Translations under genes and position numbers: made by a program
Notes under the pieces: generated by a model
The model's database searches: none
Told to the model about the DNA's origin: nothing
Seen by the model: only the letters and a program-made list of their open reading frames with translations
Shown: positions 1,031 to 57,352 of the stretch, piece by piece
Layout of the letters: each line of letters opens with the position of its first letter
Position numbering within the stretch: position 1 is the first letter of the stretch
From: Squalus acanthias
Lineage: Eukaryota
Assembly: GCA_030390025.1 (NCBI GenBank)
Contig: JASTWF010000193.1
Location: forward strand, 558,001 to 622,000
Length of the DNA: 64,000 nt
Direction of reading: 5' to 3'

Positions 1031-1942
1031 TTAATTTAATTTTATTAACTTAATCATCTGAGCAAATGGATATTTAATCGCATTCTTTAACGCATCTCTA
1101 AATTTAGTCTGGGCCACTGCATAAATAACCGTGTTGGTGCAGGAACTCAAACGCTGGAGCATATATCCGCTGTGTTCCATGACGGTAAAAGGATCTGCGT
1201 AATCTGTTCGGAAGAAATGAGTATCTGTAATTTGTATACATATTTCATAGAGGAAACTTACCACCCATAGCAAGATAAAACTGCCTGAAATTGCGAGCAA
1301 TAAGATGACTGATTTCCTTCGGTTCTCCATCTCTGGATCATTGTGACTCTCACCCTTCTTGCTCCCTCGGAGTCTCCTTCTGACTCTACTGGCCTGTAGA
1401 ATGATCCTGATGGTCAGAGCATTGAGCAGTACAATGAACACGAATGGAGCGAGTGGGGTTAAAATAATTTGGAGCCAGAGATAAGCCATCCAAAAAAGGA
1501 AAGGTGTAGAAGGTAGATTTTACAGCACAGAACCATTGTATGTTATCAATTATTTCACCAGCTTCACTTACAAAGTAAAGTGGAATGTTTTGTAAAAGGC
1601 TCAAACCACACACCGTTGTTATAATCACAGTCGCAGTTTTTTCGGTGCAATATTTGACTCTCAGCTTCGGGTAAGAAATGGCGATGAATCGATCAAAGGT
1701 GAAGGCGACGGTTAACCAGACAGAACAATTAGTGGCAGAAAATGCCAGGCCGAGATTGAGACAGCAGATGAGAGTATAGTCCAGGAATGAATTTGGGAAA
1801 TAAATCTCTTTAATCTGATACAGAATTACATCAAATATCAGGACCAGTAGATCTGCTGCTGCCATGGCCACCAGGTATCGAGTGATACATGTGGCGAGAC
1901 CGCACTTTCCACGGGAGAGAATCACAATTGTGAATAAATTCG
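1031..1942 (-). pseudogene. GPR139/GPR142-like class A GPCR copy 1, exon 2; 1-nt frameshift (pseudogene or assembly error)
   Basis: Acceptor ttgcag at 1943-1944. ORFs 1386..1925 and 1031..1489 join into one 7TM protein (LVAMAAADLLVL, SVWLTVAFTFDRF, SSCTNTVIY) if one base of the A6 run at 1492-1497 is removed, giving FPFWMAYLW, which matches VPIWVTFIW in the paralogue. Confidence 0.88.
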
Positions 1943-2644
1943 CTGCAATAAAAGAGGGAAAATTAAATTAATCATCATAGTCAAAACAAAATGGCCGGCA
2001 GGTAATGACAGTTTATCAAATTTCAGCACATATTTTCTACTGCTCAACTCATGCTCTCTCTCTCTGACTCTCTCTGTATTTCTATATCTGTCACTGATTC
2101 TGACCATCCCTCAGTTTTACTCACAATCTGCCTTTCTCCTGCCTCTCTCTCTATGTCTCAGTTTGTTTCTGTGACGCTCTAATCATCTCTCTCTGTCTCT
2201 GTTTCTCTTTAGCTGGGAGTTTTCTATCAGGGTATTTTAGTCCAGAATGGCTATGAGGGAGGGTTTAATGTACAGTATTAACCTGAAGTGCGCTCTTAAC
2301 ACCCAGGTCTACTCACTAGCACAGCTTGAGCTGCAAATTGGGACGGGTTTGGGAGAAGGAAAAGGGGTAGAATTCAAATACAAGGGATGGGAACATTAAA
2401 AGGGGGTGTCAGAAGAGGGGTGAGGGATTCTGAGATTCTTTGGAGAGTCTCAGAAGGCATCTCAACCCGTTATCCATCTTGGCCAAGGTGAAGGAATAGT
2501 GGACTAAGAAGAAACAGGCAACTATGTAAAGAAAGGAAGCCCGAGGTTCAGGCATAAGTTGGCAGACCGCGAGACGTGGCAATAGAGAGAAAACAGTAAA
2601 TCAATGGGTCAAGCACAGTTACCTATATTGTGTATACTTTAATT

Positions 2645-2975
2645 GATTCCCGGGCTGTGGGCATCGCTGGCATTTATTGCCCATCCCTAGTTGCCCTCAG
2701 TAACTTGCTAGACCACTTCAGAGGGCAGTGGGTGACGGTCGGAGTCATGTATAGGCCAGACGGGTAAGGACGGCAGGTTCCTTCTCTAAAGGATATTAGT
2801 GAATCAGTTGGCTCTTTATGATACCTGGTCAATTTATGAATGCTCCATTTATTTTTATTTCCAGGTATTTTTTAACTGAATTCACACATTCTCGATCAGC
2901 CATGGTGGATTTGAACTCACGATTTTTAGAACATTGGTCCATGTCTCTGGATTCTTAGTCCAGGAGCAAAACCAA
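2645..2975 (-). mobile_element. tRNA-derived SINE sharing its 3' tail with LINE family B
   Basis: B-box-like gagttcaaatcc head; tail agggcaactagggatgggcaataaatgc matches the 3' end of the LINE at 4670-7368. Confidence 0.7.
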
Positions 2976-3622
2976 AGTCCTTTGAAGTAAATGGAAAAAT
3001 AATCCAGCGAGTTTTCAAACAAGCTGTCAGCTCGCGAGCCCCGGTTTTACACCTGGCGAGCAGAGTTCAGTTTACCCTCTGTCTCTCTGACTTTCCTTTT
3101 CTCTCTCTTTTCTTTAAACTATTTTTATATTTCTGACTCTGTCGCTCTCTATTTCTCTCTCTCTCTCTCTCTCCCTGCCAGTTTCTTCTGTTCCGACTCT
3201 GTGGGTGAAATTTGTATCGGACGGTAGCGCAAAACTGGCGTTAGTGAATTGGCAGCACATTCAGACCGTGCCCGAAATACTTTACTTTTTATTTCAATGG
3301 GAAAAAAATTGTGCGCGGAGTGAAACGGGTTCGGATTCGCTATGAGCCGGTCTCGAGCTGCTGCCGAAGACCTATTCCACCCCCAGTACTGCGAGACTGT
3401 GGTGAAAGTTGTTAAAATTGTTGGTGCTGAAACTGCAGAGAAAATTGTAACTTCCCTGGGAATTTCTGTGACGTTATTGCGTTAAGGTTTCACTAGAAGG
3501 TGGTGACATTTAATTGATCTCAATACAAACAAGCCCGTGAAAACAAACAGACCACAGAATCAACTAGAGCAGTGATACAGGTAAACCCCGAGTGACATTG
3601 ACAACTGATGGTAATGACTTAC

Positions 3623-3692
3623 CAGGAACACCAAACACTGCGAGAATCGGGTAGTAAACCGCTTCAATCTGGGCAAGGATTGGTCGATCCAT
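3623..3692 (-). CDS. GPCR copy 1, exon 1 (MDRPILAQIEAVYYPILAVFGVP)
   Basis: ATG at 3692; 70 nt; G|gtaagt donor; phase 1 joins exon 2 in frame (GVP-A-NLFTIVIL); homologous to 57149-57218. Confidence 0.9.
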
Positions 3693-3769
3693 CTCTTTGA
3701 GTCACACGATGCCGGTGCTGGAGGCAGTAGCTCAGTTTGACAAGAAGATGAAGCCGCTTCAATCCAATC

Positions 3770-8349: not shown

Positions 8350-11300
8350 GTAAAGGTCACTTTGTTTTTTTCTTTTTCTTGCTCTTCAAGGGTCCGTGTT
8401 TAAATAGCTGGTTTGAGATAAAACAGAAACTTTGAGGTAGGTAACTGTTAATACTATATTTAATTAGTAACTGTTAATACTATGTTAAATTAATAACTGT
8501 AATACCATGTTATATTAATTTAAATTAGATACATCTTAGTCTTAAGTTTCTGTAAAGCTAGTTAATAGCCTATTAAATGGAGGCATGGCAGGGCAGCTCA
8601 GTCCCACAGAGTGCACTTCCAGTGTCATGTGGGAAATCCAGGATGCTTCCCGTGTCCTGGACAACCACGTGTGCAGGAGATGCCGTTAGCTGGAGGAGCT
8701 CGAGCTCCGGGTTTCGGATTTTGAACAGCAGCTGGCGTCACTCCGGTGCATCCACGAGGCTGAGAACTACGTGGATAGCACATTTCAGGAGGTCGTCATT
8801 CCGCAGCTAAGGAGTATGGGTGACTGCCAGAGAGAAAAGGAGGACCAAGACAGGTAGTGTAGGAGCCCCCTGAGTGCATCTCGCTCTCCAACCAGTATTC
8901 TGCTCAGAGTACTGGTGAGGGCATTGGTTCCTCTGGGTAGTACAGCCAGAGCCATGTCCGTAGCACCACGGGTGCCTCAGCTGTACAGAGGGTGCGGAAG
9001 AAGAGTGGGAGAGCAATAGTGGCAGGGGATTCGATAGTTAGGGGAGCAGACAGGCGTTTCTGCGGCCGCAGACGTGACTCTAGGATGGTGTGTTGCCTCC
9101 CTGGTGCTAGGGATAAGATGCCACTGAGCGGCTGCAGAACATTCTGAGGGGGGAGGATGAACAGCCAGAGGTCGTGGTCCATATTGGTACCAACGACATG
9201 GGTAGAAAGAGGGATGAGGTCCAACAGGTAGAGTATAGGAAGCTGGGAAAGAGATTAAAAAGCAGGACCTCAAAGGTAGTAATCTCCGGATTACTCCTGG
9301 TGCCAGGTGCGAGTGAGCATAGAAGTAGGAGGATAGAGCAGATGAATGTGTGGCTGGAGAGTTGGTGCATAAGGGAGGGCTTCAGATTCCTGGGGCATTG
9401 GGACCAGTTCTGTGGGAGGTGGGACCTGTGCAGGCCAGACGTGTTGCACCTCCACAAGGCCGGGACCAGCATCCTTGCGGGGAGATTTGCTAGTGCTGTT
9501 GGGGGAGGGGGGGGGGGTAAACTAATTTGGCAGGGAGATGGGCACCGGGATGTAATATTAGAAAGTGGAAATAAAGTGATCAAAGGATGGGGAGAGGCAG
9601 AGAGCACCGAAGTAAGAAATAGTAAGGTATTAGGTGGGGTCCAACTAAGAGAGAATACAGGATGGTCTGAGATGGGTTTAAAGTGTATGTATGTGAACAC
9701 GCGAAGCGTAGTAAACAAGGTAAGTGAGCTGCATGGGAATATGATGTTGTGGCAATAACTGAGACCAGGCGCAAAAATGGCAGGATTGGATATTAAATAT
9801 TTCTGCTTATAAGGTGTTCAGGAAATATAGGAAAGGAAAGATAGGAGGTGGTGTGGCAGTATTGGTCAAGGAGAATGTTACAGTGCTGGAGAGGGAGGAT
9901 GTCACGGACAGAATCTATATGTCTAGAGTTAAGAAATATTAAATGTTCCATTGCACTACTAGGTGTATTCTATACATCACCAAATAGTGGGAAGGATATG
10001 GAGGAGCAAATTTTCAGAGAAATTACAGAGAGGTGCAAGAACTATAGAGTAGTGATAATGGCGGACTTCAACTATCCTAATATAAACTGGGATCGTAATA
10101 GTCTAAAGGCAGAGAAGGGAAAGAATTTCTGAAATAACAACAGAAAATGCTGGAGACACTCAACAGGACAGGCAGCATCAGCGGAGAGAGAAGCAGAGTT
10201 AAAGTTTCAGGTCTGTGACATTTCGTCAGAATTTCTGAAGTATGTTCAGGAGAACTTTCTTGATCAGTATGTTTCTGGCCCGATGAGGGAGGAAATATTG
10301 CTGGATCTGGTTCTGGGGAATGAGGTAGGTCAAGTGGAGCAAGTGTCAGTAGGTGGACATTTAGGGAACAGTGATCATAATATCATAAGGTTTAGTTTAG
10401 CTATGGAAAACGAGAGGCAGCAAACTAGAGTAAAAATGTTTCATTGGGGGAAAGTCAATTTCAGTGGGATGAGAAAGGATCTGGCCCAGGTAAACTGGAA
10501 TCAAAGATTGGCAGACAAAACTGCAGTGGAACAATGGGCTGTCTTTAAAGAGGAAATAATTCGGGTACAGTCGAGATATATTCCCACGAAGGAGAAAGGT
10601 AGGGCAACTAAAGCCAGAGCTCCCTTGATGACGAAACAGATAGCCAATATGATGAAGCAGAAAAAGAGCAAGTATGACAGATGTCAGGTTGCAAATACAT
10701 CTGAGAATCAGGCTATATATAGAAAGGTCAGAGGAGAAGTGTAAAAGAAAATAAGAGGGGCAAAGAGAGGATATGAGAATAGAATGGCAGCCAACATAAA
10801 AGGTAATCCGAAAGTCTTCTATAGGCATATAAATAGTAAAAAGGTAGTAAGAGGAGGGGTGGGGCCGATTAGGGACCAAAAAGGAGACCTACGCATAGAG
10901 GCCGAGTGTATAGTTGAGGTGCTAAATGATTACTTTGCATCTGTCTTCACCAAGGAAGAGGATGCTGCCATAGACATTGTGAAGGAGGAGGTAGTAGAGA
11001 CATTTAATAGGATGAAAATTGATAAAGAAGAGGTATTATAAAGGCTGGCTGTGCTTAAAGTAGATAAATCACCAGGAGCAGATGGGGTGCATCCTAGGAT
11101 GCTGAAGAAATCGAGGGTGGAAATCGCAGAGGTACTGGTCATAATATTCCAACCCTCCATAGATACGGGGGTGGTGCAAGAGGACAAGGCTATTGCAAAT
11201 GTTACACCATTGTTCAAAAAAGGGTATAAAGATAAACCCAGCAACTAGAGGCCAGTCAATTTAACCGCGGTAGTGTGGCGGCTTTCAGAAACAGAAATCA

Positions 11301-15741: not shown

Positions 15742-15744
15742 AAG

Positions 15745-20057: not shown

Positions 20058-23000
20058 TTGTGGGAACCAGGATGTAGAAGCGGTTTGGGTAGAGATGAGA
20101 AATAATAAAGGCAAGAAGTCACTTGTTGGAGTGATGTACAGGCCCCCTAACAGTAACCACATGGTAGGATGGAGCATAAAGGAAGAAATAATGAGAGTTT
20201 GTCAGAAGGGGACGGCAATAATCGTGGGGGATTTCAATCTGCATATAGACTGGAAAAATCAGATGGGCAAAGGTAGCCTAGATGAGGATTTCATGGAATG
20301 TTTTCGGGATAGTTTCTTACAACAGCACGTTCTGGAGCCAACCAGAGAGCAGGCTATACTAGACCTGGTATTGTGCAACGAGATAGGATTAATTAATGAC
20401 CTCATAGTGAAGGTGCCCCTTGGCAGCGATCATAATATGATTGAATTTTACATTCAGTTTGAGAGAGAGAAGAGTGGTCCAAGACTACTATTTTAAACTT
20501 AAATAAGGGCAATTATGAGGGCATGAAAACAGAGCTAGCTAAAGTGAACTGGCAAATTAGGTTAAGGGATATGTCAATAGAGTTGCAGTGGCAGACATTT
20601 AAGGGGATATTTCAAAATACACAGAATATATACATTCCAACAAGAAAGAAAAATTCCAAGGGGAGGACCCACCATCCGTGGTTAACTTAAAAAGTTAATG
20701 ATAGTATTAAACTTAAAGAAAAAGTATATAATTGCACAAAGATGGGTGGCAGGTCAGAAGATTGGACAGAATATAAAAAACAGCAAAGAATGACTAAAAG
20801 ATTAATAAGGAGAGAAACATTAGAGTACGAGAGAAAGCTGGCTAGAAATACAAAAACAGATAGTAAGAGTTTCTATAGATATTTAAAAAAGCAAAGACTC
20901 AACAAAGTGAGCGTTGGTCCTATAAAAAGTGAGTCTGGGGAGTTAATAATGGAAAATAAGGAGATGGCAGTTGAATTGAACAGGTATTTTGCATCGGTCT
21001 TCACTATAGAGGATACAAGTAACATCCCAGAAATAGATGTAAATCAGGAAATGCAAGGGAGGAAGAAACTCAAGAAAATTATAATCACCAGGGAAGGAGT
21101 ACTGAGCAAATTGTTGGAGCTGCCGGCTGACAAGTCCCCGGGTCCTGATGGACTTCATCCAAGTGTCTTAAAAGAAGTGGCGGGTGAGATAGTTGCCACG
21201 TTGATTTAAATTTTCCAAAATTCTCTAGATTCAGGGAAGGCTCCATTAGATTGGAAAATAGCGAATGTAACTGCTTTATTCAAAAAGGGAGGGAGACAGA
21301 AAGCAGGAAACAACAGGCCAGTTAGCTTAACATCTGTCCTAGGGATGATGTTAGAAGCTATTATTAAAGACATTGGGCCAAAAATTCATCCCGCTGCGCG
21401 AGAGTACGCACTGCGTACTCTCGCGTATTCTCTCTCCAATTGCCGGTTTTCTGCATGCCCTGCGCATGCGCTGAAAACCGGCACTTGGTCTTTTGAAATG
21501 GGGGCGGTTCCTCGGTGCATCGCGTGCGCGCTACAGGCTGCGCGCACGCTGTGCACTTCGTGCTTTGGACGCGCAGGTAAGGACGGAAGATTTTAGAAAT
21601 GGAAAAAGGAGGAGTAAGACCCACTTTTAACAAGGTAAGTAGTGAATTAAGTATTTTTTTGAATTTTTTTTAACAGGTATATCTTTTTTAGAGACTTTAA
21701 AGACAGGTAAGTTTATTTTTATAACTTTTTAAAAGATTTTAAATTTTTTCAAAAATTTAATTTTTTATTTAAAATGGTTAATTTATTTAACTATACTTAT
21801 TTTATTAATGTGATGGTTTTTTTTTAAAATTTAATTGAGGTTTAGCTGTTATTTTGGGGGGGTGTAAGATTCATAGATTTCACAGCACGTTTGTGAAACT
21901 TATGAATGGAAGATGGTGTGCTGCCATTGGCTCTAACTGAGTCACGTGATCCCACAGCTCGCACGAATTCACTACGCCGGTGGGATACACAAGCACTGCC
22001 CAGCTGATGTCTGGAACATCAAGTTCCTGCGAGCTGGATCTGAAAAAGCACACGCGGAGTTAGAGATCGCGGGGAAGCCTTACCCCCACGGGAACAGAGC
22101 GAGATCAATTTCTGGGCCATTATAGCAGGGCACTTAGAAAAGTTAAACGTAATCAGGCAGAGTCAACATGGTTTTGTGAAAGGAAAATCATGTTTAACCA
22201 ATTTATTGGAGTTCTTTGAGAAAGTAACGTGTGCTGTGGATAAAGGGGAACCGGTGGATGTAATGTACTTAGATTTCCAGAAGGCATTTGATAAGGTGCC
22301 ACCTCAACAGTTATTGCGGAAAATAAAAGCTCATGGTGTAGAGGGTAACATATTGGCATGGATAGAAGATTGGCTCGCTAACAGGAAACAGAGAGTAGGC
22401 AAAAATGGGTCATTTTCTGATTGGCAAGATGTAACGAGTGGTGTGCCACAGGGATCAGTGCTGGGGCATCAACATTTTTCAATTTATATAAATGATTTGG
22501 ATGAAGGGATCGAAAGTATGGTTGCTAGATTTGCTGATAACACAAAGATAGGTAGGAAAGTAAATTGTGAAGAGGACATAAGGTGGCTACAAAGGGGTAT
22601 GTATAGGTTAAGTGAGTGGGCAAAGATCTAGCAAATGGAGTATAATCTGGGAAAATGTGAAGTTCTCCATTTTGACAGGAAGAATAAAAAAGAAGCATAT
22701 TATCTAAATGGTGAGAGATTGCAGAGCTCTGAGGTGCAGAGGGATCGGGAGTCCTAGTGCATAAATCGCAAAAGTTTATTATGCAGGTACAGCAAGTAAT
22801 GAGGAAAGCTAATAGAATGTTATCATTTATTGCGAGTGGAATTGATTACAAAAGTAGGGAGGTTATGCTTCATTTATACAGGGCATTGGTGAGACCACAT
22901 CTGGAGTACTGTGTACAGTATTGGTCTCCTTATTTAAGGAAGGATGTAAATGCGCTGGAAGCAGTTCAGAGAAGGTTTACTAGACTATTACCTGGAATGG

Positions 23001-23462
23001 GCGGGTTGTCTTATGAGGAAAGGTTGGGCAGGCTAGGCTTGTATCCGCTGGAGTATAGAAGAGTAAGAGGTGACTTGATTGAAACATATAAGATCCTGAG
23101 GGGTCTGGACCGGGTGGATGTGGAGAGGATGTTTCCTCTTGTGGGAGAATCTAGAACTCGGGGTCACTGTTTAAAAATAAGGGGTCGCCCATTTAAGACA
23201 GAGATGAGGAGAGTTTTTTTCTCACAGAGGGTCGTGAGTCTTTTGAACTCTGTTCCTCAGAGGGCGGTGCAAGCAGAGTCTTTGAATATTTTTAAGCAGA
23301 GGTAGATAGATTCTTGTTAAGCAAGGGGGTGAAAAGTTATCGGGGGTAGTCAGGAATGTGGAGTAACCAAATCAGCCATGAACTTATTGAATGGCGGAGG
23401 AGGCTCGAAGGGCCGAGTGGCCTACTCCTGCTCCTAATTCATATGCTCGTATGTTCGTATGT
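20058..23462 (+). mobile_element. 5'-truncated CR1 LINE ORF2 (APE plus RT), interrupted by a MITE
   Basis: YRPP, GDFN, SDH, KSPGPDG, SCLTNLLEFF, GVPQGSVLG; tail tatgttcgtatg. Confidence 0.93.
21375..22118. mobile_element. PIF/Harbinger-like MITE, 744 bp, ATT TSD
   Basis: TIRs gggccaaaaattcatcccgc and gcgagatcaatttctgggcc; ATT on both sides; excision restores the CR1 frame IIKD-I-IAGHLE. Confidence 0.88.
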
Positions 23463-23524
23463 AACATTGTGGCTAGATTGCATAATTTCAGTTTGATTAG
23501 TTTACGAAAATAAACTCTGGATCG

Positions 23525-23750
23525 ATGGATAGATAGATAGATAGGTAGATAGATAAATAGGCAGATAGTTAGATAGAACGATNNNNNNNNNNNNNNNNNN
23601 NNNNNNNNNNNNNNNNNNNNNNNNNNNNNNNNNNNNNNNNNNNNNNNNNNNNNNNNNNNNNNNNNNNNNNNNNNNNNNNNNNNNNNNNNNNNNNNNNNNN
23701 NNNNNNNNNNNNNNNNNNNNNNNNNNNNNAAACGGACGGACGGACGAACG
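23525..23750. repeat. (GATA)n/(GACG)n microsatellite with an N run (23583-23729)
   Basis: Read directly from the sequence. Confidence 0.85.
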
Positions 23751-23909
23751 TCTGTCCGACTGTCTTTTAGGTTTTATTTTATCTTCTCAGGAAACTTGTA
23801 TTAATTACCACTAATTAAAGATTTCTGATGTCAGAATATAAGTTTAGACTTTTGCATAAATTGCTCAGTGAACTGGTGTTTTTAACATTTGATGTTATTC
23901 CAATATATT

Positions 23910-24676
23910 GGCCCAGAAATTGATCTCGCTCTGTTCCCACGGGGGTAAGGAGCAGGCGCGATCTCTCACTCCGCGTTGGCTTTTTCAGATCCAGCTCGCA
24001 CGAACTTGATGTTCTAGACATCAGCTGGGCAGTGCTTGCGTATCCCACCGGCGTAGTGAAATCGTGCGAGCTGTGGGATCACGTGACTCAGTTAGAGCCA
24101 ATGGCAGCACACCATCTTCCATTCATAAGTTTCACATCCGTGCTGTGAAAGCTATGAATCTTACACCCCCCCAAAATAACAGCTAAACCTCAATTAAATA
24201 AAAAAAAAAACCATCACATTAATAAAATAAGTATAGTTAAATAAATTAACCATTTTAAATAAAAAATTAAATTTTTGAAATTTTTTTAAATCTTTTAAAA
24301 AGTTATAAAAATAAACTTACCTGTCTTTAAAGTCTCTAAAAAAGATATACCTGTTAAAAAAAATTCAAAATAATACTTAATTCACTACTTACCTTGTTAA
24401 AAGTGGGTCTTACTCCTTTTTTCGTTTCTAAAATCTTCCGTCCTTACCTGCGCGTCCAAAGCACTAAGTGCACAGCGTGCGCGCAGCCTGTAGCGCGCAC
24501 GCGATGCACCCAGCCTGTAGTGCGCACGCGATGCACCGAGGAACCGCCCCCTTTTCCAAAGACCAAGTGCCGGTTTTCAGCGCATGCGCAGTGCATGCAG
24601 AAAACCGGCAATTGGAGAGAGAATACGCGAGAGTACGCAGTGCGTACTCTCGCGCAGCGGGATCAATTTTTGGCCC
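23910..24676. mobile_element. PIF/Harbinger-like MITE, 767 bp, ATT TSD; inverted near-identical copy of 21375-22118
   Basis: Same TIRs; ATT at 23907-23909 and 24677-24679; internal duplication of about 24 bp. Confidence 0.88.
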
Positions 24677-24691
24677 ATTATGTTGTTCTAG

Positions 24692-32373: not shown

Positions 32374-35151
32374 TTGGTTCACTGCCACCTCTCTTCTTGG
32401 AATGCCTACCTTGAAGAAGTTCTGCTCTTCTCTTCGAGGGATTTCCGTTTGGCTCTTCAACCTTGTTCATCTTCATTGATTTCAGTTTCCCTTCTCGTGT
32501 TTGATCAGGTATCTGCCAAGACTCGGTTTCACAGCCACATTACTTTCCTCAGCAACTGTCTCCGGTTCCGACTTATCCCACGCGGATTCCAACTAAACTT
32601 CCACCCTTTGTGTTTCGGATCCACCCAGGATTACAAATATCTCCAAGATATTCATCGTTCCTCGAACTACTGCTCTCGCCGCATCTTGAGATCCACGCTC
32701 AACGCCATGCGGCGCCACATGAACACTCTCGACATCTCTTTTCAGCAGCACCGACGCACTCTATCTCAAAGCTGTCCGGGTCCACAGTTCCATTTCATCC
32801 TTAGACTCATCCGACGCTTCAACCAAAAACTTTTCTTCTTCCTTTCTGCGGTCAAGGATCACAAGCTTCAACAACTCTTGGACACTAAAGCCCCTCCGGA
32901 ACCTTCTTCCCCTTCACTTTCCTCTGACACCCCTTCTCCCAATCTCACCCCCTGCCGCGTTTTCACTATCCCCTCTGATCTTCCCCTCTCTGACTCCGAA
33001 CGATCAGTCCTCAGCAAAGGCCTGAGCTTCATCCCCTTACGCCCCCATCTCAATGAATTTCGAGCTCGGCACGATGCTGAGCTCTTTTTCCGCCGCCTCC
33101 GTCTCCGTGCCCACTTCTCTGGCCAGGAGTCTTCCCCCCGCACGGCTGACCCTTTCTCCCGCTTTCAGAATTCTCGTTCCACCTGGACCCCTCCCTCTGG
33201 CCTCTTACCCTCTCTTGATCTTTTCATTGCTAACTGCCACCGTGACATTGGCCAGCTCAATTTCTCTGCTCCCCTCACTCACTCCAACCTACCTCCCTCT
33301 GAACTTGCAGCACTCCATTCTCTCCGATCCAACCCTGACATTGTCATTAAACCTGCTGACAAGGGTGGCGCTGTTGTTGTTTGGCGAACCGACCTCTACC
33401 TAGCGGAAGTTGAACGCCAACTCTCTGACACCTCCTCCTACCTCCACCTGGACCATGACCCCACTACCGAACATCAAGCCACCGTGTCCAAGACTGTCAC
33501 TGACCTCATCTCCTCTGAAGATCTTCCCCCCACGGCCGCCAACCTCATAGTTCCCCAACCCCGCACAGCCCGCTTCTACCTCCTTCCCAAGATCCACAAA
33601 CAGGACTGCCCCGGTAGACCCATCGTTTCAGCCTGTTCTTGCCCCACGGAACTTATCTCTTCCTATCTCGACTCTATTTTTTCTCCCCTTGTCCAGTCTC
33701 TTCCCACCTACATCCGCGACTCTTCCGATGCCCTCCGCCATTTTAACAGTTTCCAGTTTCCCGGCCCCAACCGTCTCCTCTTCACTATGGACGTACAATC
33801 CCTCTACACCTCCATTCCCCACCAGGATGGCCTGAGGGCGCTCCGCTTCTTCCTTGAACAGAGGGCCAACCAGTCCCCATCCACCACCACCCTCCTCCGC
33901 CTGGCTGAACTTGTTCTCACATTGAACAACTTCTCCTTTGACTCTACCCATTTCCTCCAAATTAAAGGTGTTGCTATGGGTACCCGCATGGGTCCTAGCT
34001 ATGCCTGCCTTTTCGTGGGATATGTGGAACACTCTTTGTTCCAGTCCTACTCGGGTCCCCTCCCTCACCTCTTTTTCCGGTACATTGATGACTGTATCGG
34101 TGCCGTCTCCTGCTCTCGCCCTGAACTAGAACATTTCATTCACTATGCTTCCAATTTCCACCCTTCCCTCACCTTCACATGGTCCATCTCCGACTCTTCC
34201 CTTCCCTTCCTCGACTTCTCCATCTCCATCTCTGGGGATAGGTTATTGACTAACATTCACTACAAGCCCACTGACTCCCACAGCTACCTGGACTACACTT
34301 CCTCCCACCCCGCCTCCTGTAAGGACTCTATTCCATTCTCCCAGTTTCTCCGTCTCCGCCGCATCTGCTCTGATGATGCCACCTTCCATACCAGTGCTTC
34401 CGACATGTCTTCCTTTTTCCTCAACCGAGGATTCCCCTCTACCGTGGTCGACACGGCCCTCGACCGTGTCCGTTCTATCTCCCGCACATCTGCCCTCACC
34501 CCTGCCCCTCCCTCCCGGAACCACGATAGGGTTCCCCTTGTCCTCACCTTTCACCCCACCAGCCTCCACATTCAACGGATCATCCTCCGCCATTTCCGCC
34601 ACCTCCAGCGTGATCCCACCACCAAACACATCTTCCCCTCACCTCCCCTTTCAGCATTCCGTAGGGACCGCTCCCTCCGCGACACCCTAGTCCAGTCCTC
34701 TACCACCCCCAGCACCCCTTCCCCTTCGCCCGGCACCTTCCCGTGCACGCGCAGGAGATGCAACACATGCCCTTATACCTCCCCTCTTCCCACTGTCCAG
34801 GGCCCCAAACACCCCTTCCAGGTGAAACAGCGATTTACTTGTACTTCCTGCAATTTAGTATACTGTATTCGCTGCTCACGATGTGGACTCCTCTACATTG
34901 GGGAGACCAAACGCAGATTGGGTGACCGCTTTGCAGAACACCTCCGTTCAGTCCGTAAGGGGGACCCCGAGCTCCCGGTGGCCTGTCACTTTAATTCACC
35001 GCTTCACTCCCACTCTGACCTCACCGTCCTCGGCCTATTACACTGTTCCACGGAAGCTCAGCGTAAGCTCGAGGAACAGCACCTCATCTTTCGTTTAGGC
35101 ACGCTACAGCCCTCTGGACTCAATATCGAGTTCAACAATTTTAGATCATAA
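32374..35151 (+). CDS. Penelope RT plus GIY-YIG endonuclease polyprotein (true start uncertain; possibly ATG 32402 with a 1-nt deletion)
   Basis: KPADKGG, LPKIHK..PGRPIVS, MDVQSLYTSIP, GVAMGTRMGP, RYIDD; Cys linker CTRRRCNTC; VYCIRCSRCGLLYIGET..R..EH. Confidence 0.93.
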   Translation: MVHCHLSSWNAYLEEVLLFSSRDFRLALQPCSSSLISVSLLVFDQVSAKTRFHSHITFLSNCLRFRLIPRGFQLNFHPLCFGSTQDYKYLQDIHRSSNYCSRRILRSTLNAMRRHMNTLDISFQQHRRTLSQSCPGPQFHFILRLIRRFNQKLFFFLSAVKDHKLQQLLDTKAPPEPSSPSLSSDTPSPNLTPCRVFTIPSDLPLSDSERSVLSKGLSFIPLRPHLNEFRARHDAELFFRRLRLRAHFSGQESSPRTADPFSRFQNSRSTWTPPSGLLPSLDLFIANCHRDIGQLNFSAPLTHSNLPPSELAALHSLRSNPDIVIKPADKGGAVVVWRTDLYLAEVERQLSDTSSYLHLDHDPTTEHQATVSKTVTDLISSEDLPPTAANLIVPQPRTARFYLLPKIHKQDCPGRPIVSACSCPTELISSYLDSIFSPLVQSLPTYIRDSSDALRHFNSFQFPGPNRLLFTMDVQSLYTSIPHQDGLRALRFFLEQRANQSPSTTTLLRLAELVLTLNNFSFDSTHFLQIKGVAMGTRMGPSYACLFVGYVEHSLFQSYSGPLPHLFFRYIDDCIGAVSCSRPELEHFIHYASNFHPSLTFTWSISDSSLPFLDFSISISGDRLLTNIHYKPTDSHSYLDYTSSHPASCKDSIPFSQFLRLRRICSDDATFHTSASDMSSFFLNRGFPSTVVDTALDRVRSISRTSALTPAPPSRNHDRVPLVLTFHPTSLHIQRIILRHFRHLQRDPTTKHIFPSPPLSAFRRDRSLRDTLVQSSTTPSTPSPSPGTFPCTRRRCNTCPYTSPLPTVQGPKHPFQVKQRFTCTSCNLVYCIRCSRCGLLYIGETKRRLGDRFAEHLRSVRKGDPELPVACHFNSPLHSHSDLTVLGLLHCSTEAQRKLEEQHLIFRLGTLQPSGLNIEFNNFRS

Positions 35152-35594: not shown

Positions 35595-36420
35595 TAACCC
35601 CCGGAGCGCTGCTTTAAACATATTTCTAACCGCCCGCCGTGTGTTGTCCATGGCCACATGGCGCAGGCCTTGGACTGTGAGTCAGTTTCGGTGCTGCTCA
35701 CGGTTCAGGGACAGCCCTGGACAATCAGTGACGTTTCTTTACTGCGATTGGACGGTGAGCTCCCGCACTGCCCACTTGTGAGTGAAGCTCGGCTCGGATT
35801 CATTCAAGGCGCTCAGTCTTGGTCTGTCACTGCGAGAGGCGGCCGCCGGACGGACGGACGGGACGGGACGGCATGTTTCTGTCACTTGTACTGAGTTTCT
35901 CCCGCCTACAAGCGGCCCTGTCTGGTGAGTAGCCGGTTCCCGCTGCATCATCGAATGTCTCCAGGCTCACCCTCTGATCTTAGACTGTAACCGACAGGCC
36001 TGTCGGTCACATCAGGTGTTTCACACAGGGAAACTGGACAGTGTGTGCGGAAGTGAAGCGATGAAGCGGGATTGGAATCTCCATCCTGCTTCTCAGGCTC
36101 GCTTCTCCCTCTGCTTGGATTAGATGATGTCCATTACTGTCCGGACAGCCTGACATTACCGCTCAATTACTGTGACAGCTTGTATGTTCGCTCTGATAAG
36201 CAGGAGGGAGACGGACAGTGTGTTCCCTCTAAGCGGCTTGCGGGTACGGAAGTGTCAGTATAACTGCGAGCCCCGTCCCGACCTGACCCCCAGAGTGACC
36301 CAGAGACGAGCGGCGAGACTCCTGCAGGAAAGCGGCTCAGTCGGTTCGGGTTCACACCTGTTTCAGTGTAACTCCAGCCGGCGGGAAGCTGCATTTTAAA
36401 AGCTTCGTTGTACCTCCTGG
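35595..36420. promoter_or_regulatory. CpG-rich island, possible promoter or non-coding first exon
   Basis: High CpG density in non-repeat sequence; consensus donor CTG|gtgagt at 35925. Confidence 0.45.
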
Positions 36421-38098: not shown

Positions 38099-38150
38099 AT
38101 GTTCCTCTTTGCTTTACTGAGACTTTACCTTTTTCAAAGGGTGGTTCCTG
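38099..38150 (+). CDS. Nonclassical MHC class I heavy chain, exon 1 (signal peptide MFLFALLRLYLFQRVVP)
   Basis: ATG; hydrophobic 17 codons plus 1 nt; G|gtaagt donor; phase 1 gives E-SHSL with the alpha1 exon. Confidence 0.82.
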
Positions 38151-38232: not shown

Positions 38233-38598
38233 ATTTAGTCCGGGATACACCAACTGCCCCCATGTTTAGTCCGGGATACACCGACTGCCCGATGTTTCGT
38301 CCGGGTTACACTGACTGTTCTGTGTTTAGTCCGCGTTACACTGACTGCCTCGTGTTTAGTCCGGGATGCAATGACTGCCCCGGTGTTTATTCCCGGTTAC
38401 ACCGACTGCCGCATGTTTAGTCGGGGATATAATGACTGCCCCAGTGTATAGTCCGGGTTACACCGACTGCCCTCTTGTTTAGTCCGGGTTACACCGAAAG
38501 CCGGCTTGTTTAGTCCGGGTTACACTGACTGCCCTCTCGTTTAGTCCGAGTCACACTGACTGACCCAGTGTTTAGTCCGGGTCACACTGATTACCTCG
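38233..38598. repeat. Minisatellite, 12 x 30-31 bp, in MHC intron 1
   Basis: Unit tgtttagtccgggttacaccgactgcccnn. Confidence 0.92.
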
Positions 38599-40457: not shown

Positions 40458-40718
40458 AGTCTCACTCACTGCTATATTACTACAGCCTGAACCATGGGAG
40501 TGCTGATCTGCCGGAGTATAGTATACTGGGACGATTGGATGGCTGTGAGATAGACTATTACGACAAAAATATGGAAATAACTGTTCCAAGACAGCAATGG
40601 ATGGCAGAAGCATTTGAGAAGAGTTACTGGGACGAATACACAATAACTCAAGCTGGTTTCCACGGACTCATCAAGGGACAGGTTGATAGATGGTTCCAGC
40701 AGAACAACCTAACATCAA
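40458..40718 (+). CDS. MHC class I exon 2 (alpha1)
   Basis: ag..gt, 261 nt, phase 1-1; SHSLLYYYS...LPEYSILGRLDG...VPRQQWM...SYWDEYT...NLTS glycosylation site. Confidence 0.95.
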
Positions 40719-45457: not shown

Positions 45458-45733
45458 GTACTCACTACATTCAAGGACTGTTTGGCTGTGAGCTGAATGA
45501 TGCCAATCCTAGTGTAGGGGTTTTGAAATTCGCTTATGATGGAAGATACGCATTTAGTTTCGATAAAGACAAATTGGTTTGGACTGTACATGATCCAGTA
45601 GCTCAGACCCGCAAAGTGAAATGGGATAAGGAAACAAAGATGAACCTTTATTTCAAGAGCTTGTTAGAAAAGGACTGTGCTGATTTATGGAGGAAATACT
45701 ATTCAATTGGAAAAGCATTACTAACCAGACAAG
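45458..45733 (+). CDS. MHC class I exon 3 (alpha2)
   Basis: ag..gt, 276 nt; THYIQGLFGCEL...FAYDGR...KVKWD...LEKDC; canonical Cys pair. Confidence 0.96.
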
Positions 45734-45961: not shown

Positions 45962-46228
45962 TTTCCCCTGAGGTCTCAGTTATTGCCAGGGCTGGTGATC
46001 GTTGGTTTCTCCACTGCATTGTGACTGGATTTTTCCCGCAGTCCATCAGCGTGACCTGGTTGAAGAATGGAGAACATGCCCCTGAGACCAAATCTACTGG
46101 GTTATTACACAATGAAGATGGGACGTATCAACTAACAACAACACTTGAATTTGATCCGTATGATGGGAAACAATACTCCTGTCTTATTGAGCACAGCAGC
46201 TTGCCGGGTGGGAAGACAGTCTCCTGGG
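45962..46228 (+). CDS. MHC class I exon 4 (alpha3, Ig C1-set)
   Basis: ag..gt, 267 nt; LHCIVTGFFPQSISVTWLKNG...NEDGTYQ...YSCLIEHSSL. Confidence 0.96.
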
Positions 46229-49191: not shown

Positions 49192-49299
49192 AAGGAAAAG
49201 TAGAGAAAGACAAGCATGTGGGGCTGATTGTCGTGTGTGTACTGGTATCGCTGGCTAATGTTATCGTGTTAATCTATATTTGGAGGAGAAAATGGAGAG
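49192..49299 (+). CDS. MHC class I exon 5 (connecting peptide and transmembrane)
   Basis: cag..gtaag, 108 nt, phase 1-1; EGKVEKDKHVGLIVVCVLVSLANVIVLIYIWRRKWR. Confidence 0.88.
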
Positions 49300-51271: not shown

Positions 51272-51348
51272 ATTACAATGTTGTTTCAACAGAACCTGAG
51301 AGTTTGAAACGTGAGATTTGCATTGGATCCAAGAAGACGCAGGAATAA
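51272..51348 (+). CDS. MHC class I exon 6 (cytoplasmic tail DYNVVSTEPESLKREICIGSKKTQE*)
   Basis: Strong acceptor (ctaac branch point, pyrimidine tract, tag); phase 1; stop TAA; AATAAA at 51532-51537. Confidence 0.7.
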
Positions 51349-51850
51349 TCATCGTGGACCAATTGCTTTATTACTGAAACAACTCTATTGGCATAAACCT
51401 TTCACCCCTGACTAATGTTTCAGTCACTTTATTAGAATATTACTAACTTGCTTAACATTGAAGGAACTTTGTCAAATCTCATCTACAATTGCACAAGCTG
51501 GCGCTTTAGATATTACATAACAGCGGTGCGGAATAAAGGCACGCCAGGGATTTTAAAAATAAGTTTTGTTACTATTAATACATTCCTAATAAGCACAAAC
51601 TTGATTTCATTTTCAATGTTCTACCCTCATCTCCTGAAAGCTTGGCTCCGACATTGACCTCAGGTAAACCGTCTCCATCTGTGAGCAGAAACAGTGACTG
51701 TGGAAACACTGTTCAATTACTGGAAACACAGCCGAGCCCGATCCTGTCCACACACTCACATTTCACCAGCAGCATCGCCAACACAGTGGTCCGGAGCAAA
51801 TTCCGAGGCCTCTTCTCCTCTGTAACTGAAGGGAGCGAGGCCAATATAAT

Positions 51851-52594
51851 AGCCTGGCTGTTCTGTCGCCTATGACTGCGTACGTGGTGTGTACGTGGCC
51901 GTTCGTGCCTCGCAAGTTCCAGGTTTACACATGGGCTGCGCATGCGTGAAAACCCTGAACTTGCGAACTGTCAAGATTCATGCGCAGGAAATGCACATTC
52001 GTGGGCGGAGAGTTAGCTCTTTGCCCAAATCTTGCTCAGCGAATGCCCATGAAACTCTTATGACTGGTAAAAGCAGGCGCACGGTCTTCTTTTACCAGCA
52101 TAAGGGTGAAAATAAATATTACACATTTTTTTTTGGAATCGTTTTAACATTCCAAAACCTGTAAAATAAGTTTGTGTTATTTTTGGTCCCCTTAGAACTG
52201 TTTCAATTTATATTTCAAAAAATTACATTTTTGTTTTAAATTGAAATTGTTTAATGAAATTGTATTTTAATTAATTTTAAACGTGTAACGATTTTTTTTT
52301 CAAGGTTGTGTACATGTGATTTTCGGTGATTCCTACCAAACTTATCGGGAATCTGTACGTAAATAGAATCTCCATAAGCATAATGGGAATCCCTTTTCGG
52401 ATTGGTTGGGCTGGCCTACGTGAACCCAGGGACGCCTGTGAACCGATTGCGCCCCTGCGATACGTGGTCCTCCAGGCAGGCGTACGGGTAGAGGCCCAGG
52501 AGCGCGAGTCTCCGTGGTTCCAGGTAGCTGCGTAGCTTAATTGCAGTTCGGAGGCATCCGCCTGCGGGAAGCCTCCTACCGCAAATTCAGGCCC
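51851..52594. mobile_element. Harbinger-like MITE, same family as 18943-19708, inverted
   Basis: Right end gaggcatccgcctgcgggaagcctcctaccgcaaattcaggccc is the reverse complement of the 18943 left end. Confidence 0.72.
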
Positions 52595-53105
52595 GGGATC
52601 TCTGCTGCTAACCCTGTGTTTACAATGGGAATGAGTATAAGACGGTTTCGATCACCGGTGGACAATCTGCAAACCCGTTTCAGGCTCCAGCGGCATGTTG
52701 AAAGTTAAAATGTCACATAACTACAAATAGATTTAGGGAATATTTTAAGCGAACTTTCTACGCCGGAGTGGAGTAAAACGGGGAGAATTGGATCGCCTGT
52801 TGTTTATAAACGCCGCCCGAATCTCCTTCCATTGACCTCGCTCCCGCCAGAGGGGAAAGTTCCACCGACCGGGGGTGAAATTCACTTTCAGGCGCGGCGC
52901 AAAACAGGCGGGAGCAGGTCGGCCGCTCATTACACCCCCCCCCCCAACCCCACTCCGACTTTCCTCTCCATTAAACTCTACCGAAAGTAACATCGTGTTG
53001 GGCGAATAAAAGGCGGCTGATCGTCTGCTGCCCGTGTTGCTGAATTAAGATGGAAGCGAGTCTCAATTCTCTGTAGTCAGTTCTGGTTAGACTCAGACCT
53101 TTCAA

Positions 53106-54642: not shown

Positions 54643-55111
54643 GAAAGAAGCAAGAAAGAAAGACTTGCATTTATATAGCGCGTTTCACCACCACCGGACG
54701 TCTCAAAGCGCTTTACTGCCAATGAAGAACTTTTAGAGTGAAGACACTGTTGTAATGTGGGAAACGTGGCAGCCAATTTGCACACAAACAGCAATGTGAT
54801 AATGACCAGATCATCTGTTATTTTGTTATGTTGATTGAGAGATAAATATTGGCCAGGACATCGGGGATAACTCCCCTGCTCCTCTTCGAATTAGTGGCCA
54901 TGGGATCTTTTCCGTCCCCCTGAGCGAGCAGACGGTGCCTCGGTTTAACATCTCATCTGAAAGGCGGCACCTCCGACAGTACAGCACTCCCTCAGCACTG
55001 CACAAGAACGTCAGCTTAGATTTCTGTGCTCAAGTCCCAGGAGTGGGACTGTGAACCCACAATCTTCTGGCTCAGAGGCGAGTGCGCTGTCCACTGAGCT
55101 ACAGCTGACAC
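54643..55111 (-). mobile_element. Full-length tRNA-derived Deu-type SINE (SacSINE1/AmnSINE-like)
   Basis: A box tagctcagtgg; B box gggttcacagtccc; 3' tail ctatataaatgcaagt(cttt)n. Confidence 0.82.
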
Positions 55112-57148
55112 TATAATGTGCTATCAAAATATTTCAAACTGGATTGGAGGGCATCGACACATTGCCCCAGTCAGCCCGCTCCTCACCTCGGCAGCGGGAT
55201 TTCCTGTAATGTATCAGATTTATTCTCCATAAAATATAGTACATTGTAATTAGTAGAAAGCTAGGTATTCAGTTATGACCTGTATAAATACTTTCATCAC
55301 TTTTCAACAGTTAGTTCACTTGCAGTGATGCTGCCAAATCTAAAAAAAAATGGAGCGATTGTTAAAAGCACTAGTGATGGGACACGGATTGCTGGCGCTG
55401 CATCGGCGGTGCGCAGGAAGCACATTACTCCGAGTTTGCTGCAGTGCAATGGCCCACACTGGTTAGTATTGGGGAGTCTTCGGCAAACTGTTGTTTCTCA
55501 TCTACCCTGAAAATTATAAATACTGCGAGCTCGGCATTATCTGTTCACGGTGGGATTTCAGCACTCGGCTCGACACAAGAAGTCGATTTTGAACTATCAG
55601 TGCTAGGGCCAAATTAATGATATCGGTGGGCCGCCCGTTATACACTCCTCCTGTTCCTTCGTTTCACTGAGGTCTAAGTTAAACTTACCTACAGGAGGCT
55701 GGATTTTATTCTTAATTAGGGTCCTTTTTGGGTAAATACTCAGGAAAATGGAGCAGTGAGGGTCCCGCTTCTACTAAAGCGGGGGTGGAAACCACTTGCA
55801 TTGTGTGGGGTAACTTTAATTTTGGACCGCAGTGTAAAATGAGCGATATGGAATTCACCGCCCATTATACGCCAGGCCTGATTTCCCTATCGTTTGAAAT
55901 CGATGGAAAGGAAAATCGGGTAGGACCTATAATTAGCGGTCAATTCGATATCACCCATTTTACATTATCACCCAAAGTCAATAGTACACCCACTGTCCGC
56001 AACATTTGACCCAAAATCGATCCCATTTTATCACCAGCTCTATATAACGGTGATATTACCTGCCGACTGTTTCCCTGAGGCCACCCCACATTGAGCAGCC
56101 CGTTATGTTTGCTACAGCTGAGGTTTGCTTTCACTTTGCCTGCCTGTTGATTTTAACTTTTTGGTTCTCTGGAGGTTCTTTCTAGACTTTTAATGCTCCT
56201 TTTAGTCAGCTCCGCAGAATGTACAGTATTGGGCTGGACACATGCATTTCCCAATGGGAATCCCACTATTCCCATGTTACGAGGAGGAGATAGAACAGGC
56301 CAGTTTGGAGTCTCTTGTAATGAAGCAGCATCACAAAGGAATGTTTCTACAACCTCCTGCAGACAAAATCCAAGTCAATGCAAAGGGGAATCGGGCGAGG
56401 TGTATAATGGGCGGCCCCTCCGGTATCACTCATTTTACACTATCGCGAAAATTAAAATGCCCCTTTGTGGCGTTAGGACCACCACACCGCAAACCCGCCA
56501 GTGGGTGGAGAAACCCCGTCAAAACACTTCTCACCCTGACTTCAACCAGCAACAGCTGCACAGGTACATCTGAGAATCTGAGCGCCTTCTTGCTGTTGAC
56601 CCCCAGCCCAGAGCCTCCGGCCCCTTCAAGGTACTCGGGCAGTTGTGCTTCCTGCAGCTCCAAAAGTGATGTCCCTCTTTAATTGGTTTCAACCTTTTAA
56701 AAGTTGCATCACAACTAAATGTCGCTCTTTCCCAGTAGTGGGGCCTAGTAAGGAGTTGCGTTACCCCTCCTAAGCATTGCATCGCTAATGAGGGCTCCAG
56801 GAGGAAACTTCAGCGGGTTAGTGTTGGGAATGCCGTGGGTGGGCGCCTGTCTTGCCTCCCCTCCAACCTGCCAACAAGAGGACTATTCAGCACAAAATTA
56901 CAGGAGAATAAAATCGGCCAGAATGCTGATTTTGAAAGTTCAGAGACAACTGTAGTTTCCATGATGTAATTCATTTAAAACAGCATTTGGGGAAATTAGT
57001 GCGTTTTTCATCTAACTGATCCATTAAAAGTAGCTGTAAAGCAAATAGATCAGAATGATCAGATGGCATTATCAGATACACAGAAAGAGCAGTAAAGCAG
57101 CAGTTAAACACTGGCAAAGATAAACAATAACTGAGAATACTGACTTAC

Positions 57149-57218
57149 CAGGAACACCAAGCAGCGCGAGAATAGGGTAGTAAATTTCTTCTATCTGTGC
57201 AAGTATTGGACTTTCCAT
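57149..57218 (-). CDS. GPCR copy 2, exon 1 (MESPILAQIEEIYYPILALLGVP)
   Basis: ATG at 57218; 70 nt; G|gtaagt donor; in frame with exon 2. Confidence 0.92.
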
Positions 57219-57284
57219 TTTCTGTGAGAAGCGACTTAGCCTGTTATTGTTAACGACACACAGACGAGATATGTTCAGATGAAT

Positions 57285-57352
57285 CCCTCATATATATCTG
57301 AAAGAGGTCTCCTGAGACAATTACATCACACATTAATCGACATTAATTACAG
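57285..57352 (-). promoter_or_regulatory. Putative core promoter of GPCR copy 2 (TATA plus homeodomain/Ebf-like composite)
   Basis: Minus strand reads TAATTAAT..TTAAT..TAATTG-TCTCAGGAGA-CCTCTTTCAGA-TATATATG; conserved with 3770-3836. Confidence 0.62.

Follow-up and report, generated by a model that had tools for sequence, protein, structure and literature searches.

A segmental-duplication copy with a UGA-lineage MHC class Ib gene and two GPR139-like receptor genes in Squalus acanthias

Genes and features of the window

The window, a 64,000-nucleotide stretch of Squalus acanthias DNA sited on an unplaced contig (C1054), contains a duplicated block of about 55 kb. This block carries, in order, a GPR139-like receptor gene (G1, minus strand), a dead MHC class I alpha-1 exon, a UGA class Ib gene (plus strand) and a second receptor gene (G2, minus strand). 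A preliminary description had listed these four elements, and all were recovered in the order and orientation given there (Table 1). The tail-to-tail distance between the stop codons of UGA and G2, put there at about 1.76 kb, measures 1,757 bases, and the cartilaginous-fish source that it proposed is supported.

Table 1. Features of the duplicated unit (positions in the window).
Feature	Position	Strand	Remarks
Segmental-duplication unit	1031..57352	.	Non-coding DNA colinear with other units, mostly 80-100% identity
Receptor G1 exon 2 (class A 7TM, GPR139-like family)	1942-1031	-	PF00001; frameshifted
Receptor G1 coding exon 1	3692-3623	-	ATG to phase-1 GT donor in TM1
Dead UGA-type alpha-1 exon (relic)	24692-24951	+	AG/GT ends kept; 1-base deletion
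Candidate UGA leader exon A (signal peptide)	35873..35924	+	Resembles sawshark and horn shark UGA model leaders
Candidate UGA leader exon B (second signal-peptide exon)	38099..38150	+	Resembles sevengill UGA model leader
UGA alpha-1 exon	40458-40718	+	9CH4 match; exon-bounded contig, run X3
UGA alpha-2 exon	45458-45733	+	9CH4 match, PF00129; exon-bounded contig, run X2
UGA alpha-3 exon (C1-set Ig)	45962-46228	+	PF07654; exon-bounded contig, run X2
UGA transmembrane exon	49204-49299	+	
UGA cytoplasmic-tail exon	51272-51348	+	Tyr-x-x-hydrophobic motif (YNVV) at start
Receptor G2 exon 2, open	53995-53106	-	PF00001, class A
Receptor G2 coding exon 1	57218-57149	-	

The class I gene shows the full layout of its kind, from leader through alpha-1 to alpha-3 to transmembrane segment and tail, in frame and with AG/GT exon ends. 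Judged by its sequence, it is a member of the UGA lineage. Its alpha-1 and alpha-2 exons match PDB entry 9CH4 ('Crystal structure of shark nonclassical MHC class I, UGA') with E-values of 1.5e-40 and 2.3e-40, the next matches lying at about 1e-11 and 1e-15; the runner-up, 8GM8 (4.5e-11), has an alpha-1 domain that matches nurse shark UFA. The nonclassical class I gene announced earlier is therefore confirmed, being far closer to 9CH4 than to other lineages. Identity with the UGA models of eight other elasmobranchs ranges from 60 to 89% per exon, and a Tyr-x-x-hydrophobic tail motif is present in 7 of the 12 ortholog models read. In the clade of the window, the tail continues 20 residues past YNVV. 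Classical MHC class Ia molecules are marked by nine peptide-terminus anchor residues (HLA-A2 numbering). Read by eye against the alignments, the window gene keeps only five of them (Y7, Y59, K146, W147 and Y171) and is changed at the other positions (84 Q, 123 A, 143 R and 159 L), so that it does not rank as classical class Ia; position 143 is F in most UGA paralogs. The predicted fold of sevengill UGA (pLDDT 67) was aligned with 9CH4 over 237 residues (Z 17.7, rmsd 8.5, 66% identity); with its alpha-1 domain poorly resolved, it served to read the title of 9CH4 and not the groove. A connecting-peptide exon guessed near position 46377 was dropped, a usable acceptor being missing in most copies.

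The relic was found upstream of 14 of the 16 UGA copies on C26, and its 1-base deletion is common to all 17 copies aligned over that site. This shared frameshift, together with an N/S ratio of 1.03, rules out that the relic serves as an alternative alpha-1 exon; it is carried along by the unit as a fixed, dead element.

The GPR139-like identity proposed for the receptors also held: when 40 family sequences were combined into a profile, human GPR139 came out as its best PDB match (E 3.4e-18; the second-best reached 2.1e-12). A single receptor sequence gives matches at E about 1e-7 not only to GPR139 but also to the motilin, GPR15 and CCK-A receptors, and RefSeq labels most relatives GPR139. Our receptor tree covers elasmobranch members, and the GPR139 placement rests on the profile match. 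TATA-like sites lie about 90 bases upstream of G1 exon 1 and about 80 bases upstream of G2 exon 1. The frame of G1 is shifted by a single additional T within the T-run near 1492-1497; since this change is private to the window among the 7 G1-type copies caught by a pattern search, it may be an assembly slip. The clade of G2 is old and includes orthologs from catshark, horn, whale and bamboo sharks.

Amplification of the unit and selection on UGA

Colinear non-coding DNA was found across 20 units, and the window itself is a mosaic whose segments are nearest to different units of C26. The amplified class I-receptor cassette envisaged earlier stands as far as a block with class Ib and receptor genes in constant internal orientation is concerned, but the window holds one such unit, not two: G1 and G2 (about 74% DNA identity) belong to separate subfamilies, and the set of four elements recurs as a whole. 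A G2-type copy lies tail-to-tail with UGA in 19 of the 21 other units examined, thus confirming the repeated pairs that had been anticipated; with the same receptor subtype in the same orientation each time, this recurrence is not due to chance. Mere closeness of UGA to a receptor is expected in the C26 array, since a known receptor lies within 20 kb for 51% of random points.

On C26, 16 alpha-1 exons were identified (threshold of at least 84%), plus 6 whole ones on unplaced contigs (of 64 matches), and copies of UGA-bearing blocks, tens of kb long, occupy at least 16 places there, some in one orientation and some in the other. The single- or low-copy state described for UGA does not hold on C26. 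As low copy is a described property and not a sequence criterion, the multicopy UGA found here marks a variant. The copies form about six clades, with paralogs about 5% apart.

These copies could have arisen by purely neutral amplification, with no selection for the number of UGA or receptor genes and with extra copies drifting to loss. Consistent with this, 5 of the 15 scorable C26 copies of UGA are broken, several units are reduced to the relic or a leader, and many unit copies are very young. However, the 10 open UGA copies on C26 have an N/S ratio of 0.36 (p 5e-7), against the ratio near one of the relic, and the clade without Tyr tail, taken alone, gives 0.37 (p 0.004). Moreover, exon-bounded UGA contigs were found in two same-species runs guessed as RNA, of which the tissue is not on record, and they include variants from clades other than that of the window; no exon-exon joint for UGA was present among the joints listed. 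Part of the low N/S signal could predate a recent relaxation, but we consider the neutral explanation to be quite unlikely.

Alternatively, the copy number could largely be an assembly artefact, through uncollapsed haplotypes or a chimeric tiling of few real copies. Some units are indeed 99-100% alike, layouts of C26 are repeated on unplaced contigs, the window is a mosaic, and false duplications or alleles may be present among the near-identical units. However, two haplotypes are an insufficient source for about six clades with roughly 5-10% intron divergence and clade-specific insertions, deletions and stops, and such an artefact is very improbable as the main cause.

The UGA tails are of three types: with a terminal Tyr motif, with a Tyr motif plus extension, and with no Tyr. 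The motif reads YNVV in the clade of the window and YNGV or YNFV in a second group, and it is missing in the 35.62/35.92/36.29/36.35/38.37 group. The tails of mammalian CD1 isoforms keep or lose a Tyr sorting motif, and the isoforms are routed to different compartments. By analogy, the three UGA tail types are predicted to lead to different compartments, the surviving paralogs being predicted to be beta-2-microglobulin-bound, CD1-like lipid presenters. This selected radiation of UGA with three tail types is new and was probably driven by unequal crossing-over in the array; our literature searches found no description of the UGA expansion or of the receptor array in the MHC.

Partnership of the class I gene and the receptors

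Besides these UGA copies, C26 carries at least 93 copies of the receptor family, and 56 of the 93 known ones are more than 50 kb away from any UGA. Of 18 G1-type copies, 4 lack a UGA downstream. The family is also present on C1, C3, C21, C28-C31 and dozens of contigs; a class I profile gave no match on these receptor-bearing sequences (62 of 62 candidates scored). As regards MHC linkage, UBA-like genes occur on contigs C812 and C3328 together with pieces of the unit or the array, and a BET gene with Ia-like genes on C3751, which is not shown joined to C26. A class II beta profile matched nowhere over the genome, and neither did its control, so that this search is uninformative. UBA-like genes do not form another lineage interleaved with receptors, since no receptor was found in 20 stretches of their flanks on C812 and C3328 (about 190 kb sampled). 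In this sample, the interleaving is therefore particular to UGA.

The sevengill shark and the skate were compared by accession order, which suggests that UGA is flanked by members of the receptor family in the former and was independently multiplied among them in the latter, with 10 clustered UGA models. The neighbourhood signs sought in other species are thus present, but the receptors near UGA in these two species belong to other subfamilies. In sawfish, the receptor array sits in the MHC, and its gene list shows no gene marked MHC-Ib among 10 array receptors.

The preliminary description interpreted the linkage as a functional receptor/class Ib module. On this view, cells would express UGA and array receptors jointly and the two would cooperate, as H2-Mv does with V2R; alternatively, the receptors would sense ligands in UGA-bearing cells. 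Selection would keep the linkage, perhaps via a shared regulatory domain instead of a fixed partner gene. The constant subtype and orientation in 19 of 21 units, the family members next to UGA in sevengill and skate, the mostly open G1 and the presence of family and UGA transcripts in the same three runs guessed as RNA (tissue not on record) are in line with this, as is the H2-Mv/V2R co-expression reported in PMC11643622. The two gene trees, the congruence of which had been proposed as a check, are broadly congruent on C26 (Mantel r of 0.66 between UGA and G2), but the dead exon equals this value (0.66 with UGA) and introns exceed it (0.77 with UGA). The introns and G2 gave 0.73, and UGA and G1 0.37. 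Linkage and congruent trees can thus mimic a functional module, and the dead exon provides a built-in control.

The survival of both genes was then scored in 15 units of C26, which are related by descent; unit 36.53 was dropped for an assembly gap. UGA and G2 are both whole in none of them, UGA is open with G2 dead or absent in 10, UGA is broken with G2 whole in 1, and both are broken in 4 (Fisher p 0.33). No positive association between UGA and G2 is seen in this small table, which does not prove their independence. The N/S ratio is 0.30 for open and 0.99 for broken G2 copies. The search of G2 against the three runs guessed as RNA returned 43 contigs, 0 of them at 95% identity or above, and is uninformative on G2 expression.

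The claimed module is therefore left unsupported: none of the 10 open UGA copies of C26 has a whole G2 next to it, the partner subfamily varies by species, and most arrays of the family are without a class I gene. Nor does the proposed parallel with H2-M1/M10 and V2R hold. V2Rs are class C receptors, whereas those found here are of class A (PF00001), and the class I gene is a CD1-like UGA, not of M10 type. The functional-module reading is weak, and we consider it unlikely.

We favour, as quite probable, the explanation that the window is a segmental-duplication copy, in which the receptors are likely passengers while selection kept many UGA copies. In early elasmobranchs, UGA would have been located in or beside an MHC-linked array of the receptor family. 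Blocks including non-coding DNA were copied across C26, probably by unequal crossing-over and conversion in this repeat-rich array; the window itself is a mosaic of paralogous blocks. After copying, UGA stayed under purifying selection, as its N/S ratio indicates, whereas most copies of G2 have died and now evolve neutrally.

Some observations are counted against this passenger explanation. In the unit of the window, UGA and G2 are both whole, and unit 36.53 may be in the same state. Of the 10 C26 units with a G1-type receptor, 9 have it open, and dN/dS is 0.63 across 14 open copies, so that G1 is not a decaying passenger. The lack of receptors in the sampled flanks of UBA-like genes, which makes the interleaving particular to UGA, also counts here. 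The second, independent multiplication of UGA among receptors in skate, read from accession order, is a further point of this kind.

Comparison with known systems

Shark UGA is represented by Gcirratum_UGA in the supplement of PMC10751288. UGA and UFA are presented as CD1-like and lipid-binding in section 2.1 of PMC12562908, citing a personal communication, and our literature search found no primary paper on CD1d-like lipid binding of UGA. The genes described here resemble the reference UGA in their alpha-1/alpha-2 sequence and Tyr tail motif. However, the latter is reported to be single- or low-copy (PMC12562908), whereas on C26 we counted 16 copies, which fall into about six clades and show two leader exons, three tail types and a dead alpha-1 passenger, the whole lying within a receptor array. 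The MHC-wide study of Verissimo et al. (2023; PMC10751288) names UBA and UEA as multicopy class Ib lineages; it tabulates the receptor array but does not discuss it, and its main text contains 0 mentions of GPR, G protein or olfactory. By our results, the class Ib region of elasmobranchs would hold a large array of receptors whose family is unstudied. Compared with the orphan receptors GPR139/GPR142, the array family stands out by its size, with copies numbering in the hundreds or more in each genome; mammalian GPR139 is reported to be activated by L-Trp/L-Phe.

Mammalian CD1a-e are duplicated genes (PMC12562908, section 2.1). Like them, UGA forms a set of duplicated CD1-like genes in which the Tyr tail motif is kept or lost, but its paralogs are far younger and UGA is a CD1-like gene rather than an established CD1 ortholog. 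If both the selected radiation of about 10 open paralogs and the probable one in skate are true, CD1-like diversification occurred more than once in cartilaginous fish. UGA, one of two newly named CD1-like genes, bears on the age of lipid-antigen presentation, and its paralogs offer a set of molecules in which ligands and trafficking can be compared with the 9CH4 structure as reference.

In mouse, H2-Mv (M1/M10) and V2R likewise associate a multiplied class Ib family with a large GPCR family. According to PMC11643622, the two are linked there by being co-expressed in vomeronasal neurons, whereas here the link shown is a physical one. The mouse receptors are of class C, those of the array of class A, and the class Ib gene of the array is CD1-like. 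There is a slim chance that UGA and the receptor family share a regulatory domain and are expressed in the same cells for a joint sensing of lipids or metabolites, with no fixed partner gene; such a domain would explain why UGA has come to lie among these receptors repeatedly, and to multiply there independently, in a shark and a skate. By this analogy, UGA and its receptors would be an elasmobranch counterpart of H2-Mv/V2R, without a fixed partner.

Class I gene and receptor families

The four elements of the preliminary description, a GPR139-like receptor gene (G1), a dead alpha-1 exon (the relic), a complete class I gene and a second GPR139-like gene (G2), were recovered as described, with 1,757 bases between the class I and G2 stop codons (about 1.76 kb previously). 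The class I gene belongs to UGA, a shark class Ib lineage described as CD1-like. Its alpha-1 and alpha-2 domains matched PDB entry 9CH4 with E-values of 1.5e-40 and 2.3e-40 (next matches, 4.5e-11 and 1.9e-15, respectively). The title of this entry names UGA, and its displayed residues agree with Gcirratum_UGA in the PMC10751288 supplement. Two candidate leader exons are followed by alpha-1 to alpha-3, transmembrane (TM) and tail exons, all in frame. Five of nine classical peptide-anchor residues are present (read by eye, HLA-A2 numbering), and a Tyr-x-x-hydrophobic motif directly follows the TM segment, as in 7 of 12 ortholog models. Neither an expanded UGA lineage nor this receptor array within the MHC was described in the papers that the literature search returned; 9CH4 was released in March 2026, and a primary UGA paper giving copy numbers may therefore exist.

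Further class I lineages were called by eye against a reference alignment: UBA-like on contigs C812 and C3328, Ia-like on C3751 (together with a BET gene) and UCA-like on C3663, which are probably unplaced MHC pieces. A divergent UGA-related gene on contig C26 (30.70-30.71 Mb) lies 1.8 Mb ahead of the receptor array. It shares 45% (alpha-1), 38% (alpha-2) and 51% (alpha-3) identity with horn shark UGA, and a by-eye comparison with the reference alignment placed it with neither UFA nor UDA.

G1 and G2 encode class A 7TM proteins, each with a 70-base coding exon 1 ending within TM1 and a long exon 2. The G2 frame is open in the window. G1 carries one additional T within a T-run, present in the window alone among the 7 copies caught by the pattern, and may therefore reflect an assembly slip. 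A profile of 40 family sequences had human GPR139 as its best PDB match (E 3.4e-18; next 2.1e-12). With a single receptor sequence, GPR139 was not separable from motilin or CCK receptors, so that "GPR139-like" designates the nearest relative by sequence and not an established orthology.

A first look at the genome gave about 4,700 receptor candidates. One query scored 135 of them, located on C26 (32.5-38.6 Mb) and unplaced contigs; a second, different query scored 127, spread over C1, C3, C21, C28-C31 and several dozen contigs without placement. Frames are open in nearly all of these matches, and the two sets lie in different arrays. On the contigs of the second set, the class I profile found nothing (62 of 62 candidates in the genome scored). 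Such a very large family fits oddly with the statement in PMC8455134 that cartilaginous fishes have relatively few GPCRs.

The repeat unit and its copies

Of the 64 matches in an alpha-1 search of the genome, 16 are UGA exons located on C26. Unplaced contigs carry 6 whole UGA exons and 1 that is cut, and the remainder comprises 28 exons of the relic type and members of other lineages. Flanks of at least 20 kb were fetched at 21 units besides the window. The predicted recurrent pairing was confirmed, a G2-type receptor lying tail-to-tail in 19 of these 21 units. The relic precedes UGA in 14 of the 16 C26 copies. At a threshold of 89%, there are 18 G1-type copies, of which 14 stand head-to-head, upstream of relic and UGA, and 4 have no UGA. 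Non-coding DNA is colinear in 20 mapped units, mostly with 80-100% identity. On C26 there are at least 93 receptor copies, and for 56 of them the nearest UGA is over 50 kb away; from this lower bound, a random point in the array has a 51% chance of a receptor copy within 20 kb.

In 2-kb tiles, the best match of the window passes from units 36.38/C812 to 33.95, 34.69 and 33.93 (units are named by C26 position in Mb), mostly at 99-100%. As read from the sequence, this shifting best match is the pattern of unequal exchange; the mosaic may also represent an assembly chimera or another haplotype.

Coordinates of additional features in the window and on contig C26
Position	Feature	Observation
8442-8519	Three tandem copies of a 26-base repeat	4.7 kb upstream of G1 start; none similar near G2
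21367-24684; about 42200; 51850-52600	Young inverted repeats, non-coding	Arms 93-97% complementary; one adjoins the relic's acceptor side in window and unit 33.95
32371-35148 (+)	Open 926-codon frame, presumably a Penelope-like element	Reverse transcriptase and GIY-YIG matches under curated cut-offs; upstream of UGA in window and unit 33.95, not at that site in other mapped units
35873-35924; 38099-38150	Tandem candidate leader exons	Each in most fetched copies; one broken in units 33.95, 34.69 and 36.29, the other open there; other sharks' gene models use either
38234-38598	31-base tandem, about 12 copies	Directly after leader B
59500-62160	Retroviral/LTR-element pol-like fragments	RNase H- and integrase-like stretches, by eye
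L102:1244-1492, 9544-9807; L109:1616-1888 (fetched stretches)	Divergent UGA-related class I gene	

Survival and selection of the copies

The expected congruence between class I and receptor trees was present (UGA and G2, Mantel r 0.66, 14 C26 units) but not specific, the relic giving an equal value (0.66, 14 units). The correlation with UGA was 0.77 for introns (16 units) and 0.37 for G1 (9 units). An identical 1-base deletion occurs in 17 of 17 relics covering that site, so that the relic was already dead prior to amplification and continues to be carried.

G2 is whole at 2 of its 16 positions on C26 and missing at another 2. An insertion of about 420 bases interrupts 6 copies, 3 have stops, 1 has an exon 1 stop, 1 is fragmentary, and for 1 no exon 1 lies within 16 kb. 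UGA and G2 are both whole in none of 15 C26 units (36.53 was left out for an assembly gap); UGA is open beside a dead or absent G2 in 10, broken with a whole G2 in 1, and both are broken in 4 (Fisher p 0.33, the units being related by descent). An exception is the window, on unplaced contig C1054, where both are whole.

We computed N/S ratios from distinct changes, and pairwise values were consistent with them. The 11 UGA copies with open frames gave 0.36, from 67 non-synonymous and 47 synonymous changes (p 5e-7), and the ratio was 1.03 in 15 relics; for G2, it was 0.30 in 5 open and 0.99 in 9 broken copies. Open G1 copies gave 0.63 pairwise (n = 14). Open UGA paralogs vary at 38 alpha-1/alpha-2 positions and have three tail types. 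Overall, the interpretation proposed earlier is partly supported: the results favour an amplified block with class Ib and receptor genes, but not a functional receptor/class Ib module.

In one UGA group (fetched stretches L021/L022, L023/L024, L025/L026, L027/L028 and L033/L034), the TM exon is short by 2 bases, so that the tail is read in another frame and lacks the Tyr motif; the ectodomain of this group is under purifying selection (0.37, p 0.004, three open copies).

Three Squalus acanthias runs guessed to be RNA, all from one study, were searched. In two runs (X2 and X3), contigs start or stop at the borders of UGA exons and carry additional sequence past them, which suggests spliced UGA transcripts; the variants in these contigs indicate different paralogs from that of the window. 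All three runs also contain short fragments of other receptors of the family.

Other species and proposed mechanism

Twelve clusters came from an alpha-1 search of longer proteins: three in sawshark and otherwise a single one for each species or species group. In six species, the contig given for UGA and that given for family receptors are equal in length. Neighbourhoods in skate and sevengill were read indirectly, from accession order, which is no map. The UGA cluster of the skate Rhinoraja longicauda comprises 10 members, of which the seven with 334 residues are 95.5-99% alike. The accession numbers of nine members are interspersed, in 13 alternating runs, with those of 22 receptors from the same 41.5-Mb contig, the tenth being excluded because its accession is outside that range; LOC numbers increase along with the accession numbers. 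In the sevengill Heptranchias perlo, UGA accessions (249, 250) fall between receptor accessions (247, 252) on a 530-kb contig. In a FastTree phylogeny (86 sequences, midpoint root), these neighbouring receptors fall in skate-specific and sevengill clades outside those of G1 and G2. In the sawfish list, class Ib genes flank the 10 array receptors, and no gene marked as class Ib is interspersed with these. From these accession orders, lists and clades, the neighbourhood looks old, the receptor partner of UGA does not look fixed across species, and UGA probably multiplied at least twice.

The analysis shows that UGA was copied with its flanks, that purifying selection kept many of the copies, and that the tail-to-tail receptor mostly died. 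As the most likely mechanism, and with reasonable confidence, we favour that UGA would have lain in or beside an MHC-linked, duplication-prone receptor array, and that unequal exchange would have copied it. Three points count against this mechanism: G1 mostly remains open, UBA-like genes had no receptor interleaved in about 190 kb of flank sampled, and skate has the same pairing of families. The 38 varying positions and three tail types would predict a division of labour like that of CD1 isoforms, which differ in their tails.
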